The position numbers were made by a program, and so were the translations under genes. From Octopus vulgaris (taxonomy: Eukaryota), in NCBI GenBank assembly GCA_951406725.2, contig OX597814.1, positions 60,822,001-60,886,000 of the forward strand: DNA of 64,000 nucleotides. The letters run 5' to 3'. The notes beneath the pieces were generated by a model, which was not told where the DNA came from, ran no database searches, and saw only the letters and a list, made by a program, of their open reading frames with translations. Shown here piece after piece: positions 1-7,213 of the stretch. The stretch's first letter is position 1, and the number at the start of each line of letters is the position of its first letter.

Positions 1-65
1 AATAATGAAGAAATAAAACGATTTTTTTCCAAAATTCTGACAACTTTTTCTTCAATATATATACA

Positions 66-187
66 TATAAGAATTTTTTGCATAATGAGATAGAAAACCA
101 AGGCTGTGTAGATATTAGAACATTTATAAATGTTCTAATATTTACACAGCCTTGGTTTTTTATCTCATTACGCAAAAAATTCTTATA
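66..187. repeat. Near-perfect spacerless palindrome (about 60-bp arms)
   Basis: tataagaattt...aaccaaggctgtgtagatattagaacattta|taaatgttctaatatttacacagccttggtt...aaattcttata; centre at 126/127, few mismatches. Confidence 0.9.
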
Positions 188-379
188 TACACACGCTGAC
201 ATATGACCAACATTGAAACCCTTATTCGCAAAATTACCAAACCTGGAACTTAACTATGGTCTGTCTATAGCACTTATTCAGCATTACCTGACACATTTGG
301 GTCTCAATGACACCATTACTTCTTATAACCTACATACATATACAGATACATATACACATACCTATACATATATATATTA

Positions 380-760
380 TCATCATTGTCGTTTAACGTC
401 CACTTTTCATGCTGGCATGGGTTGGACGGTTTGACTGGGGGCTGGCAAGCCAGAAGGCTGTACCAGGCTCCAATCCGATCTGGCAAAGTTTCTACAGCTG
501 GATGCCCTTCCTAATGCCAAACACTCCAAGAGTGTAGTGGGCGCTTTTTATGTGCCGCTGGCACGAGAGCCAGTCAGGCTGTACTGGCATCAACCAAGCT
601 TGAATGAAGCTTTTTATGTACCACTGGCACAGGAGCCAGTCAGACAGTACTGGCAACGACCATGCCCAAATGGTGCTTTTTATGTGCCACCATTCGAACT
701 TGGTCATTACCATTACCGCCTGACTGACCCTCATGCAGGTGGCACATAAAAAGCACCCAC
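380..760 (-). mobile_element. RTE-LINE 3' UTR/tail fragment, (GAT)n-tailed family
   Basis: catcat..gtttaacgtcc..ttccatgctggcatgggttggac..ctggatgcccttcctaa; same sequence recurs more than 10 times in the window. Confidence 0.75.
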
Positions 761-859
761 GTGGTCACCTGGCCTTCGCCATAGTCTCTACTGTACTCAA
801 ATGTATTCATAAGGCATCTATCACAATGCCCATGTATCAGGTCATAGTTAAAGACTGCT

Positions 860-1330
860 AGTCACTACTGTTCATGAGAAAAAAGTTCTAAATTCCAACC
901 AGACTTGTCATTGCTCTGTTTCCTGTTCTCTGGAGTGAGCATTTCTGGCTGTGTTACCTTGAAGTTGTCCTGTTAACCTGTTCTCTTAAGCAGGCTTTTC
1001 TATCAGCCTTAGACACCAACCTCCATCGTTTCTACTCTGGTGTCTCATGTTTCGTCAAGCAAGATTGTCTATTGGTTCGAGACTCCAATCTCCATTTCTG
1101 CTCTAATTCCTCAAGCAGGCTTGCCTGACTGTTTTCAAACTGAACTTTTACTAATCATTTTATTGTGTTTGAAGGGTGTTTCGTTGTCTCTGAGATTGGA
1201 GCTTGTCTTGCCTTTCTTCTTGTTTCCCTTACCCTTTGGCTTATGGAGCTTCGGGCTTCAGATGATTGAAAAGTATTGAACTGAGAGACAAACTGCATGC
1301 ATCTATCCCCTCATCTATTGCCTATTTTCT
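860..1330 (-). mobile_element. Possible decayed Gypsy-like pol 3' (integrase C-terminal) remnant
   Basis: Minus-strand fragments weakly resemble SPAELLF, VET-GG and TRSGR-like motifs; multiple frame disruptions. Confidence 0.3.
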
Positions 1331-1856
1331 ACCCCCACATATTCCCACCATTTCATTCCTCCAGTAGTAAAAGTGAAAGTTGCACCATTTATTTGTGGAG
1401 TATTAAGTTCAATCAATAACAAAACAAAAAAAAGTCAGACCACGTCAACTGGTCAGACATCAAGAATGACAAGTGAGGGCTCCAAAACTTTTGCACTCCT
1501 TGAAACAACTTTTCTTCAAGAGGTAATTTCTATCCAAAGCCTTTAGTTAAGGTCTGGCAGCTAACACAACAAAAAGCAAATGTCAACAAAAACCAATAAC
1601 AACAGTAGTAGCAGTAGCAGTAGTAGTAGTGGAGGAGGCTTGTGGTGGTAGTAGTTGTCATGGAAATGGTTTCAATAATAGCCATTCTTCAACCAACTCT
1701 GATCAGTCCCATCCTTACTCTCTCCCCCACCTCCCTCTGTCTCTTCCCTTATTTTCTTCCCCTCCCTCTCACAAACAAGTACACACATAAGCACTGTCAT
1801 CAGAGAAGAGATATTGATAAATTTGAAAGATTTATGAATGAACATGTGATACCAGC

Positions 1857-1914
<58 letters not shown>

Positions 1915-2068
1915 CATAAGGGATAAAGCCATCTGAATATGGCTAGGGACAGGGCAGGGTGGTGGGGGTGTTACTGTTGCATTTAGCCCCAGGCGAACAT
2001 CGACGTCACTAGAAAGGCTAGACACCGTCACGGTGTCCTTATCCTGCAAAGGGAGGTAATTCCCCGAT

Positions 2069-2142
2069 GAAGCGGAAACCACACACGGACCATGGTTTCA
2101 AGGTGTATTGCCTATCGTCGGCGTGTGGTAGGCTTCCGCTTC
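2069..2142 (-). ncRNA. Type I hammerhead ribozyme candidate (left arm, CCGACGA variant)
   Basis: Reverse complement of 2451-2524. Confidence 0.7.
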
Positions 2143-2450
2143 CTCGACGAATTCTCACTCTGCAGGATTTTCACATATAGATTTTCAAGCAAAATACATT
2201 TGCTGATTTCGAAAATCTGTTCGAAAGCAATAATAATTCTCTAAAAGAGATATAGACAGTAACTGCTCGATAACATAAGGGACTAAAGCCATCTGAATAT
2301 GGCTAGGGACAGGGCAGGGTGGTGGGGGTGTTACTGTCTATATCTCTTTTAGAGAATTATTATTGCTTTCGAACAGATTTTCGAAATCAGCAAATGTATT
2401 TTGCTTGAAAATCTATATGTGAAAATCCTGCAGAGTGAGAATTCGTCGAG

Positions 2451-2524
2451 GAAGCGGAAGCCTACCACACGCCGACGATAGGCAATACACCTTGAAACCA
2501 TGGTCCGTGTGTGGTTTCCGCTTC
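2451..2524 (+). ncRNA. Type I hammerhead ribozyme candidate (right arm, CCGACGA variant)
   Basis: Stem I cacacg/cgtgtg extended by gaagcggaa/ttccgcttc; core CCGACGA 2472-2478; stem II agg-caataca-cct; GAAA 2494-2497; palindromic stem III ACCATGGT; GUC site ending 2505. Confidence 0.7.
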
Positions 2525-4690
2525 ATCGGGGAATTACCTCCCTTTGCAGGATAAGGACACCGTGACGGTGTCTAGCCTTTCTGGTGACGTCGATGTTCGC
2601 CTGGGGCTAAATGCAACAGTAACACCCCCACCACCCTGCCCTGTCCCTAGCCATATTCAGATGGCTTTAGTCCCTTATGTTATCGAGCAGTTACTGTCTA
2701 TATCTCTTTTAGAGAATTATTATTGCTATATATATATATATATATATGCATATATATCAGATACAAAACTATTTTAGCTACAAAAATACATTTACTATCA
2801 CCTCTACCACCCACCCCTTAACTATTTCCAAAAACCTAAAATGGAATGGAACCAATGCTTGTTATTTTTATGTTGTATCAAAGTCTGCATTGTATCAATG
2901 TATTTTGTTCAATATTTCGGACTTGTTTTTGGTTGTGATAGTGATTGGTTGAGGGAAGGAGGAGGTAGATAGTTTTTTTTTGTTTTCTTTTCTTTTTTTA
3001 TTGTTTCTTTCCTCTCATAGATTAATTTCAAAGCCAGCCACTGCAGCTTTATCCATTACCAAACATCTTAACTTAATGCATACAAACAAGAGGTGGGTAG
3101 CCTAATAGCAAAAGATAGCTAAAACATTAGCTTGAGTAAATATTAAAGGATACAAAGAGATTTCATCTAAAACACTTCTTGCCCAACAAGGCAATAAAAT
3201 CTAGTTCAATGAACATGAATGAGTTTAGCAAAGTACTTTTTTTTTTACATATGCTTGTTATCTATATAGATGTGTACTTGTATTTGGTTTTATGTGTGTG
3301 TGTGTTGGTAGATAAATAGATATGCATAATGCAAGTGTATATGAGAGTGTATGCATTGGTTTATTGCAATGTGTGTGTATGTGTGTGCGTGCGTGCATAT
3401 ACATACATAATTTGTGTTGTGAGTGGGACAGACAGACAGACAGATAGATAGATGAGCAGATAGAGAGACATCTAGATTGATTGACTGACAGAGACAGACA
3501 GATAGAGACAAATAGAAACAGACAAACAAAAAGATAGACAGAGACAGACAAACAGATAGATAGATAGATAGACAGACAAATTTACAAGATAAAAAGATTT
3601 TGTTTTCAGTTTGTGCTAGTGTACTTTAAAATTTTGTTGCCTCCGTGACTAAAAATGAAAGAATTCACTCAAAGAGAGAAAGATAAAGATGAAACAACAG
3701 TTGTTGCCCTACCTACCCAACAACAAATGAGTTGAAAGATGGCTAAAAATGGCAAACATGGATTGCCTAAATAAATAGACCTGCTCCAAACATTCACCTG
3801 TGAGTGAACAAAATAAATGTAGAGTTTTCTTTTTTTTTTAAATAATACTTTATTGAGGTTTCATTACCTTTCTCATTTTTCTGTAAAAACAGAAATACCT
3901 CAGTATCTCCATCCCTATTTCCCTCTCAAAGCTTAGCAGAAATTAAAGGAGAGACTTGACACAATGCAACAGGATTCGTCCAATGTAAGCTTCTGTGTGG
4001 TTACTCACTCTATCAGAAACAACAGCTGAAGCAACACCCTAAAATCTCAAAAAAAGAAAGGCACATAACTTAATGTAGTCCAGGATGCACTACACAGGAA
4101 GAGGAGGCAGGATAGGAACACCTGGAACAGTCTTGATCATAGGTATGTCAACTGTGGAGAAGTCAACAATTACTACTGGAATGATAGCAATTATTTTGTT
4201 GTCTGAAAAAGTTGTTTGAATATGTCCAGAAGAAAAATTGTACCTCCTTTACACAACTGTTCAAGAATCAAGATTTGCTATGACAGACTCTACTGTCAAC
4301 TTTGACACAAAAGCGTCCAGTAGTTGGATCAACTGAACAGCTAACTCATTGAATTAACATGTAAAGTGGCTAAGTACTCCACATACAGGAGTATCTTTAC
4401 TATAATTCTTAAGAAGAATCATGTGACAGAAAATGACTAGGCTAGATCATAGAATTACAACTACAGCTTAGGAGCTTCTACCGTTTCCATCAACCTACTT
4501 TCTCCTCATGAGATTTTGGTCAATCCATCATGCTTAACAAGTCACATAGTGGCATCAAACCTAGAATTTCAGGATTGTGAAGCTAACTTCACAACCATTC
4601 TGTCAAGCTTATGTTCAAGGCATGTTTTGCTGAAATATTAGTCAGCCTATCTTTAGTTATATACTAAAATATATTAATTACTCCATTGTG

Positions 4691-4917
4691 TTAACCCTTT
4701 AGTATTTAAATCAGCCATATCAGACACAAATATTCTACCTGTTTTACGTACAAACTGGCAAGATCCAGTCTCTCCATCAATACCCTACAATGTCATTCTA
4801 AAAATAAAGAAACACATCATCAAAATCTCAGATACAAAATAATGCCTGATGAATTCAAAATAATACGATTAAACAAGCATTACATTTGACAGAATCATCT
4901 TAATGCTAATGAGTTAA
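4691..4917. mobile_element. piggyBac-type MITE (family 1)
   Basis: TTAA-CCCTTTAG start and ctaatgag-TTAA end; related copies near 31170-31390, 49825-50011 and, inverted, 29972-30207 and 57918-58169. Confidence 0.7.
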
Positions 4918-5014
4918 ACATAGTGCAGAGATGCTAACCCATCAGTTTGCCTCATGTCTCTCAATTTTCCTTTGCCACAAATACCACCTACCAACACTAT
5001 ATAGTACTCTTCTA

Positions 5015-5527
5015 ACTAGGAATGTTTCAGGGTAGATCCAAGAAGACGTGGGACAAAGTGGTGAGAAACAATTTTCAGATGCTGGACCTCAATGAAGGGA
5101 TACTAAAGGACTGGGCATTGTGGCAACTTATCGTACTTGAGAAAACATATCAAGCTAGGTAAAACCATGGCCATTCATAGATACAAGCATATCCTTTATA
5201 GCCATGCCCACCTCTCTCTCTCTCTCCCAACTAGAGGTCTTTGTTTTACAGGTGTTGATGCCACATAAAATGCATTCATGGTGTCATGTAAAGTGCCCAC
5301 ATGCCAGTGCCACATAAAATGCTCTCATATTGATGCCACATAAAAGCACTCATGCCAGTAGCATATAAAAATCACCCAGCACACTCTGTAAAGTGGTTAG
5401 TGTTAGGAAGGGCATTCAGCCACAGAAACCATGCCAAAACAGACCATTGAAGCCTGGACAGCTCTCTGACTATCAAACCATTCAACCCATGCCAGCATGC
5501 AAAACGGATATTAAACGACGATGATGA
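5015..5527 (+). mobile_element. RTE LINE 3' end (ORF C-terminus, 3' UTR and GAT tail)
   Basis: Translates GRSKKTWDKVVRNNFQMLDLNEGILKDWALWQ (RTE GRPxKTW..DRxxW motif), then runs into the abundant tail family. Confidence 0.75.
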
Positions 5528-7213
5528 ACTGCACTGCTATGATTGTCTATCATGCACATATCACAGCAATTGGCTTTAATATTCATCCATTCTCTCTGCT
5601 CACTTGTGTTCTGTTGTTCCAAGCAAGTTAATAATTATGCACATTCAACAGACCATGCTTACTTTATTCCTCTCCAGCCAGCATAGCTCTTCCACATTCA
5701 ATGCCATGAAGCATCACACTTCTTACACATGCTTCACACATTTTGTCTTCCGCTTTACACTGGGCAAGAGAAATCCATTGTAGCTAATAGAGCCAATACT
5801 TCCATTATGCTTTGAAAATTTCTAACAGGCAATGCAGACCACACAAAGCATTTTTTGGCAATCTCAACAGCATTAGATACTCTTTCTGCAACATTAATTT
5901 TCATCTTTATTTTTTTCTCCCTTGTCTATTACTATAACGCTTTACTTATCATTCTTTACCAATCATTGCAATTATATTTTGCTTATTCTGGTTTCCCTTC
6001 TTTTCCTCATCACTTTCCCTACACATCTCTTTGGCTTATTGATTAAATTATTTATTCATCTACTTACAAAGATAGCTAAATAGCTGAATTCTATAACTTC
6101 TCAAAAGAGATAATGATATACATAGCATATGCATACCTAAAACTCTCTCTCTCTCTCACACACACACACACATACACACATACAAGTACATAAAAATAAC
6201 ACATGTATGCTGATACATGCATGGACACACAAACACAGCACTCAGGATGTGGGACTTAAGAAAAATGCTGTATTTCAGATATATCCAGCTCATGTGAACA
6301 TCAAAACAGAATATAAAAATGGTGGTGGTGGTGGTGGTGGTGGTGGTGGTGATAATGATGATGGAGTAGTGGTTATTGGTAGGATCATCAGAGCATCAGA
6401 CAGCATACCTCATAGTATTTATTATGGTTCCTTATGTTTTGAGTTCAAATCCCTCAATTTTACCCTTCATCGTTCCAAGCTTTGTAAAATAAAATACTTG
6501 CCAAGTACTCTAATCGATCCACGCACTTGTACTATATTTCAGTGACCTTGGAAGTAAGGAAGGCAAAGTTGACCTTGGCAGGGTTCAAACTCAGAATATA
6601 AAAAGCCAGAATAAATATCACAAGGAATTTTGTTTGATACTCGCATGATTCTACTAATCATCATCATCATTTTTATGCTCATTTCCATCTTCCCATGTGT
6701 TAAATCCATTTTTTTCCTCTCCCTAAGTCTATAAGGTGTGTGTGTGTGTACATATGTGTGTGTGCGTGTACATATGTGTGTGTGCATGTACATATGTGTG
6801 TGTGCATGTACATGTGTGTGTGTGTGCATGTGCGCACATGTGTGTGTACATATGTGTGTGTGTGTGTCTGAATGCTTACATTCTGTCATGTTCTCAGATT
6901 GAAATCACTTAATTAAAAGCAGTGATGGCATGTTCCCTGTGAGCAAATGGCTCTGTAGCTCTGCGCTTTCAAAAACAAGTAGAATTAAAATTCTTTGCTT
7001 AAAAAAGAATAAAAATCAGCAGAGGGTTAACAACAGGAATAGCAAAGAACATCTAACTGTAAAATAATGACTCAATAGTAGGTCTTTGTTCAACCCATGC
7101 TAGCACAGAAAAACAGATATTAAACAAAATGAACAACAAAATACATGTGTGGGGGGGTACATACATATGCACACATGAACACAAATACATACATACGTAT
7201 GTGTGAGTGAGTG

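Follow-up and report, generated by a model that had tools for sequence, protein, structure and literature searches.

The closest described systems are the small non-LTR retrozymes of animals, which include mussel retrozymes of 350-390 bp and the axolotl element Rtz_353 (Cervera and de la Pena, 2020; PMC7229834). In that work, reverse transcription (RT) on circular RNAs by Penelope-like elements (PLEs) was proposed as a hypothesis. Vertebrate retrozymes have been interpreted as PLE derivatives, an argument made from pLTR homology (Li, Clavereau and Pollet, 2026; bioRxiv 10.64898/2026.07.22.740005). PLE insertions often carry an extension at one end only, termed the 'tail' (PMC8557442), which in vitro work places between two internal sites of RT initiation by a protein predicted to act as a dimer (Frangieh, 2024; PMC11167929). 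The same work reports start-site use without a difference between strands, and uncleaved RNA as the dominant substrate (PMC11167929).

Layout of the window copy

The window analyzed here is a stretch of 64,000 nucleotides of the Octopus vulgaris genome (contig OX597814.1, positions 60,822,001 to 60,886,000 of the forward strand). Two head-to-head arms of a 360-nt unit sit within a (TA)n microsatellite in this window, a structure that an initial annotation had read as a young hammerhead-bearing retrozyme or the fossil of a viroid-like circular RNA. The features are given below in window coordinates, with m denoting the position in the monomer (window 2330-2689 = m1-360).

1861..1910, no strand: (TA)n microsatellite target, left flank
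1911..2337, minus: arm A, RNA-sense (m287-360 followed by m1-354); ending 3' at the upstream RT start m354, without tail
2079..2130, minus: type I hammerhead of arm A, with cleavage predicted between 2088 and 2087
2330..2337, no strand: 8-nt microhomology linking the 5' ends of the arms (m287-294 complementary to m1-8)
2330..2727, plus: arm B, RNA-sense (m1-360 followed by m1-38); ending 3' at the downstream RT start m38, with tail
2330..2689, plus: 360-nt monomer (predicted circular RNA sequence, permuted), non-coding and highly self-paired
2463..2514, plus: type I hammerhead of arm B, helix I 2466-2471/2506-2511, GUC cut after 2505
2684..2727, plus: 44-nt Penelope-type 'tail' (m355-m38), bounded by the two RT start sites, at that end only
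2728..2757, no strand: (TA)n microsatellite target, right flank

The plus arm (2330-2727) comprises 1.11 units with a period of exactly 360, and the minus arm (2337 to 1911) comprises 1.19 units, so that the two opposed arms stand as first described. They differ by G/A at window 2010 and by a 1-nt deletion at approximately 1923, in agreement with the estimate of about two differences. The monomer has a GC content of 46% compared to 36% for the window, and ATG-started frames on the circularised unit reach 50 aa at most, confirming a GC-richer, non-coding unit. Its circular fold has a predicted energy of -121 kcal/mol (z = -7.1 relative to 100 dinucleotide shuffles). As the initial annotation had stated, each arm holds one hammerhead and the terminal redundancy does not include it; the type I motif could be placed on the RNA strand. 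With a single ribozyme per arm, the window copy cannot release a monomer and is therefore a dead-end daughter. The strand with the hammerhead, the plus strand of the unit, is the RNA, and the outer ends of the arms are thus 3' ends. The proposal that each arm has its own permutation endpoints holds for the inner (5') ends, which are free, and fails for the outer (3') ends, which are fixed at m354 and m38 throughout the family. An assembly artefact, named at the outset as a possible source of the inversion, is very unlikely: insertions with this two-end architecture are seen at dozens of independent loci.

Elsewhere in the window, positions 65-188 form a near-perfect 62-bp hairpin (arms 95% complementary), which may be the end of another small element; similar sequence adjoins a PLE-rich locus (L230, near 1330-1400). 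Two opposed copies of a common SINE-like repeat (window 380-760 and 5247-5527), which we take to be typical of octopus genomes, flank the locus.

The ribozyme, its family and a candidate driver

Read by eye, the plus-strand hammerhead (2463-2514) has the core CCGACGA at 2472-2478, GAAA at 2494-2497 and a GUC cut; in arm B the core is a U4C variant, with U.U at the base of helix II and a palindromic helix III (ACCAUGGU). An Rfam scan of window 1-6000 returned 13 weak matches, with no hammerhead family among them. For an alignment we picked 16 of the 37 distinct variants from the fetched loci to span the subfamilies, leaving out junction-truncated and most singleton forms. In this alignment 94.5% of cells were paired and 0 of 500 shuffles scored as high, although related sequences inflate such scores. 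The 3-8 pair varies between CG, UG and UA, one helix I pair switches from CG to UA, and the self-complementarity of helix III is kept. This covariation across subfamilies supports a real plus-strand hammerhead that Rfam missed, and the maintained pairing, compensatory changes and helix III palindrome suggest that the ribozyme is under selection.

The U4C change weakens hammerhead activity in vitro, yet leaves enough of it in a viroid (Perreault, 2011; PMC3088659). An RT and GIY-YIG encoding PLE of the same genome likewise has a U4C-type core (CCGAAGA). In the predicted circle, the active ribozyme fold lies 8.8 kcal/mol above the rod fold, which hides the ribozyme. Given this difference, the U4C core and the U.U at the base of helix II, cleavage by the young ribozyme may be slow. 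Among 81 insertions, 43 have an arm with two whole ribozymes, able to release monomers if these cleave; the window copy is not one of them. A CCGAUGA..GAAAC motif on the minus strand was rejected as a ribozyme, as its helix II is 4 nt long, helix I is missing, and the GAAA is lost in an older relative of 80% identity. Twister and HDV-like readings, considered by eye inspection, were dropped after the plus-strand hammerhead was found.

A genome search with the monomer gave 1042 candidates, of which 40 were scored; a 20-mer taken from the ribozyme has 1384 matches (control 0). Exact matches to the border between the unit and (TA)n were found 731 times for m354 (control 1) and 760 times for m38 (control 0), and the family comprises roughly 700 or more dispersed insertions. 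Every unit has one type I hammerhead; genome-wide there are 1209 young cores and 305 older UUGANRA variants, as well as 40 further canonical-core hammerheads that mostly belong to more distant families. Singleton substitutions affect 84 of 66,995 multi-copy positions (0.13%), which makes the family very young and upholds the initial view of a recent multicopy family. Older subfamilies at 95%, 87% and 80% identity use the same ends. At least four more families of hammerhead repeats occur at loci L117-L146. They have a canonical core and share the ACCAUGGU helix III; some are inverted, and some are weakly related to the 360-nt family. We regard these as a retrozyme radiation within the genome.

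The two fixed outer sites lie 44 nt apart and neither coincides with the ribozyme cut. On contig 1 and the first 120 Mb of contig 2 (97 + 100 junctions), all 56 outward-facing, that is inverted, pairs consist of one of each end (p 3e-17 for the 197 listed junctions); 41 and 44 junctions were unpaired, and one pair of 5.9 kb was left out of inspection. We mapped 101 loci, made up of the best-scoring matches, a chromosome-ordered set, picks of unpaired ends and 12 loci picked for length, and set aside 20 of them as older or multi-segment. Clean young two-arm insertions were found at 58 of the 101 loci: 54 have one of each end and four have one atypical end. Four of the 23 'solo' arms were actually two-armed, their second arm falling below the 94% cut. 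The flanks are (AT)n at both ends in 53 of the 58 two-arm insertions. One insertion among the 20 set aside (L039:1760-2563) is the sole one seen with m38 at both ends; several small deletions interrupt its shorter arm and the junction is near-palindromic, resembling error-prone fold-back. A de novo origin of the (AT)n flanks by telomerase-like synthesis is not favored: the m38 site has no UAU template, and one insertion with empty-like sites, a single and weak case, has (TA)n there already.

The mapped two-arm insertions consist of monomer sequence only, from (TA)n to (TA)n, and no LTR, PBS or PPT was recognized in their content. They contain no ORF, and hence not the RT and GIY-YIG frame of an autonomous PLE. 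Fixed ends attached to a coding Penelope ORF had been named as evidence against the initial reading; the ends are fixed, yet the ORF is absent from the mapped two-arm insertions. Multimers and scattered permutations had been named as support for a circular template; multimers and scattered inner ends were observed, but the outer ends fall at two fixed sites. Two fixed 3' ends, a tail at one end, 5'-truncated head-to-head inversions and a microsatellite target are hallmarks of PLE insertions, and this end pair, tail and target agree with the Penelope-like machinery proposed initially. We are highly confident that the element is a retrozyme mobilised by a PLE.

A literature search, with most subscription papers outside its reach, found neither a cephalopod retrozyme nor tail-paired insertions of a retrozyme described, and the words 'ribozyme' and 'retrozyme' are absent from the main text of a 2026 paper on octopus repeats. 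The family may already be present in Dfam or Repbase as an unclassified or Penelope consensus. Among the sequence holders on record there was no RNA entry. Contigs from four sequencing runs, the kind of which was guessed, included one cyclic contig of 390 nt (in X6), which tandem DNA fits equally; as contigs cannot tell a circle from tandem DNA, nothing is concluded on expression.

The genome contains many GIY-YIG PLE copies. One PLE family has intact 781-aa frames with RT and GIY-YIG domains in many copies, and a CxxxxCxxC linker by which it would be defined as Neptune- or Nematis-type. Its copies are mostly 96-99% alike and inserted in (TA)n, and they have two 3' ends approximately 38 nt apart, one of each being present in all three inverted copies with both ends seen. 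In its 3' UTR (L197-L216) we identified a hammerhead-like core, UUGAUAA, as in the older retrozyme, with a weak helix I. Repeated GATTGG/TGACGTC motifs also occur in this UTR. By age and design, the 781-aa PLE is a plausible candidate driver. No sequence common to the monomer and a PLE was found in the 50 GIY-YIG loci fetched (150 scored of 6136 candidates), the similarity of the tail to the 781-aa PLE is at chance level (P 0.5), and the 781-aa protein had no relative among the viral contigs searched. A second young PLE family, at L207:2300-5480 and in the flank of L088, is inverted in (TA)n, with a tail of approximately 30 nt and a CCGAAGA (U4C) hammerhead. Two apparent links to a partner were rejected: a 46-nt tail match in L207 sits in a separate non-coding sister fragment outside the PLE, and a retrozyme 1.9 kb upstream of a GIY-YIG match proved to be a separate insertion.

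The template of the arms and competing explanations

Both arms are identical at segregating sites in 40 of the 48 insertions with at least eight shared sites (6 of 54 had fewer). Between insertions such identity occurs in 7.8% of 5060 pairs, or in 22.6% of 1080 similar-identity pairs. The window copy is one of the eight discordant insertions, by one site. Eight alleles were found in one sampled insertion each and are fixed in all copies there, six of them spanning both arms; these 'private' alleles may also occur in unsampled insertions. We consider it very probable that both arms derive from one RNA. Neither arm was copied from the other, since their lengths are uncorrelated and the longer reach is found in either arm (25 vs 24). 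Fold-back-like junctions exceed expectation (5/54 vs 1.5, p 0.015), but fold-back was rejected as the general origin of the inverted arm, because 49 of 54 insertions show no relation between the 5' ends of their arms. Overlap at 49 junctions averages 1.9 nt vs 0.67 by chance, and 9 of 58 junctions have inserted bases. At one inversion junction (L035:1997-2002) these are a few TA bases.

The spectrum of variants bears on the stage at which haplotypes arise. Among alleles present in at least two copies within an insertion, A>G leads (13/47), whereas singletons are strand-symmetric (C>T 20/83, G>A 22/83, A>G 6; Fisher p 0.003). This difference suggests that haplotypes arise or are filtered at the RNA level. 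Eight of the 13 A>G sites pair with U; A-to-I editing would fit the spectrum, and selection for changes from A-U to G.U pairs would fit it equally.

Copying went through the unit more than once, as the initial annotation had proposed: arms reach 14.7 units and are seamless across the cut site, where all 233 spans have normal length. The length allowed by a cut monomer is exceeded by 115 of 135 arms. The 5' ends are not enriched near the cut (3/139 vs 2.7 expected) and are not fully uniform (p 0.026, excess at m211-240). The largest insertion has 14.7 + 8.4 units of one haplotype, so that arrays extend to 23 units. We distinguished 26 haplotypes in 65 insertions; 20 of the 31 multi-unit insertions are nevertheless homogeneous, which speaks for a monomer bottleneck, and 11 are mosaic, several of these at a single site. 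In two insertions (L112 and L222) a variant is confined to the first unit of both arms, in register, and absent from the other units, which together with the mosaics suggests that multimeric templates are used at times. Linear copying, however, neither lengthens arrays nor spreads an allele to all units, and a step from monomer to multimer must therefore recur. RT round a circle would be the simplest such step, and we lean towards a template that is mostly a monomer circle. Terminal redundancy alone does not imply a circular template; of the initial proposal, multi-round copying was observed, some arrays look copied from multimers, and the circle is the likeliest template by inference.

Several arrays deserve separate mention. 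One haplotype (L084, L097, L109/L217, L218) has 3-15 units per arm compared to a family median of 1.4, reflecting either a better circle or a long donor (L218 was picked for length). Mosaic arrays (L050, L111, L038, L090) vary in many cases at A/G sites, and in L090 a variant alternates as if copied from a dimer. Locus L107:1600-2500 (contig 1, near 132,676,500) has many small deletions, most of them AT/TATA-filled, interleaved with (TA)n; possible causes are several rounds of cutting and repair, slippage of the RT or a local fault in the assembly.

The same two-site priming by a PLE could have used an uncleaved linear multimer, or a multimeric circle, from tandem donors, with a slow and mostly dispensable hammerhead. 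The two in-register variants common to both arms and the 11 mosaics among 31 arrays fit such a template, as do the U4C core, the blocked ribozyme fold and the consistently long arrays of one haplotype, which are expected of a long donor; an anole PLE needs no ribozyme cleavage and has unprocessed RNA as its main substrate (PMC11167929). However, many haplotypes have homogeneous arms of at least three units, which linear copying cannot yield, and 54 of the 56 minor alleles at positions covered by both arms occur in one arm only. The 5' ends lack the sharp pile-up of a transcription start, with a mild excess at m211-240 only, and the ribozyme is conserved with compensatory changes. We regard a template of this kind, the main rival, as rather unlikely. 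Linear self-cleaved monomers, joined by R2-like end-to-end template jumps, would mimic a circle and account for the tandem arms and for occasional haplotype switches (L050, L111 and L038), but the cut site shows neither stops nor indels (0 deletions in 2305 base calls) and jumps within a mixed pool should leave most arrays mosaic, which makes them improbable.

An endogenised infectious viroid-like RNA, replicating from RNA to RNA and captured by a PLE by chance, would explain the rod-like, highly paired unit, a template-level variant spectrum unlike that of genomic singletons, and the near-identical words found under several organism labels. It is very hard to reconcile with a ribozyme in a single polarity (the minus-strand look-alike lacks proper helices and is not conserved), with subfamilies graded from 100% to 80% beside sister families that use the same ends, all within one genome, and with a dedicated PLE tail. 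A DNA form of the element is abundant. The viroid-like fossil of the initial annotation was abandoned as a separate origin on the grounds of this one-polarity ribozyme, the PLE hallmarks and the graded older subfamilies, and the data do not call for a viroid-like infection. Equally improbable is a reading as ordinary pLTR pieces of a coding PLE, in which fold-back self-priming would have produced the inverted arm and later unequal crossing-over the tandems. An inverted arm with a tail at one end is the textbook PLE layout, and the few fold-back-like junctions point the same way, but the mapped two-arm insertions are all monomer between (TA)n tracts with no space for an ORF, the arms have unrelated 5' ends in most insertions with either one longer, and both can be multimeric with the same alleles. 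An origin of the family from an old pLTR is possible.

Proposed cycle and comparison with known systems

Taken together, the sequence data favor a further non-LTR retrozyme of the metazoan type, PLE-mobilised and not a viroid fossil, for which cleavage and a circular RNA are predicted. The initial assignment to the hammerhead-bearing non-LTR retrozymes agrees with the short non-coding unit, the tandem arrays of up to 14.7 units and the single type I hammerhead in each. In the proposed cycle, the driver acting in trans would be an endonuclease-positive (EN+) PLE, probably of Neptune type. Plus-strand transcription of loci with two or more hammerheads per arm would yield RNAs from which the hammerheads, likely as dimers, free 360-nt monomers, and a host ligase would circularise these as in the mussel and axolotl retrozymes. 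The GIY-YIG/RT protein, probably a dimer, would nick both strands of the (TA)n at which the insertions are found. The nicked strands would prime internally, one at m354 and the other at m38, in keeping with the fixed ends and their one-of-each pairing; judging from the haplotypes shared by the arms, both primings would use the same RNA, presumably the same molecule. Each RT would move upstream past the ribozyme site, where the arms (0.2 to 15 units) show no stop or scar, most simply round a circle with strand displacement. Microhomology, as seen at the junctions, would join the two cDNA ends, leaving a head-to-head insertion in which one end bears the 44-nt tail.

This reading as a whole, a young non-autonomous retrozyme driven by a PLE from two internal RT starts on one RNA, likely a circle, is the one we favor, with some reserve. 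A more specific version is tentative and on balance doubtful: a PLE dimer would twin-prime on one closed RNA circle, one subunit and one fixed start per strand, both rolling and displacing for up to 23 units, with haplotypes born at the RNA stage, possibly by cephalopod A-to-I editing of the circle in its double-stranded form that is written back into DNA. If twin priming on a circle is true, it would explain the inverted-repeat and tail structure of PLEs, and its footprint would be the first to show rolling-circle retrotransposition by animal retrozymes directly; editing would be shown to drive the evolution of an element. The footprints can be counted (strict start-site pairing, one haplotype across arms, seamless multi-round copying) and bear on how the inverted and tail structures of PLEs form, on retrozyme circles as RT templates and on PLEs as their driver. 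Mussel, coral and amphibian retrozymes can be examined for the same footprint, and the family offers a 360-nt substrate, together with intact RT/EN proteins as candidates, for a direct in vitro test.

The octopus family resembles other metazoan non-LTR retrozymes, which are non-coding tandem units of 150-450 bp with a GC content below 50% and one type I hammerhead (PMC7229834). It shares with them the short palindromic helix III and, with the axolotl HHR_Amex2, the U.U at the base of helix II (PMC7229834). In contrast, its hammerhead core has U4C or U3-A8, unlike those retrozymes, and dispersed two-armed inversions with PLE tail ends in (TA)n are absent from the main text of that study (PMC7229834). 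The predicted octopus circle buries the ribozyme in a rod, whereas most metazoan circles are said to leave it free, and the family is known from DNA alone, whereas RNA circles are described for metazoan retrozymes (PMC7229834). Hammerhead viroids are set apart by ribozymes in both polarities; the minus-strand motif found here is without helices I and II.

Like the vertebrate retrozymes, the family is non-autonomous and co-occurs with PLEs (bioRxiv 10.64898/2026.07.22.740005). In its main text, that report includes no mollusc, discusses local tandem amplification and draws the link from pLTR homology (bioRxiv 10.64898/2026.07.22.740005). In the octopus, the insertion footprint is the link to PLEs, no pLTR homology was found, and the arms are multimeric from insertion on.

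The Chlamys non-autonomous elements, such as MRC1, are also non-coding and PLE-mobilised with multicopy head-to-tail insertions, but the Chlamys clade is described as lacking canonical hammerheads, and its non-autonomous elements share the 3' sequence of their partners (PMC8557442). With EN+ PLEs (Poseidon PAc, PMC11167929; Neptune and Naiad, PMC8557442; Adineta Penelope, PMC3846280) the family shares two internal RT starts that delimit a tail, as well as 5'-truncated head-to-head inversions, AT-rich or (TA)n targets and a hammerhead near the end. It differs from these in having no ORF, a tail of 44 nt rather than 30-40 nt and many units per arm. A further difference is the strict one-of-each use of the start sites counted here. 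In L1 twin priming, two target strands prime on one RNA and the products are joined by microhomology. The octopus family departs from that scheme: each start is internal and at a fixed site, and its two cDNAs span the same sequence, for which strand displacement would be needed.
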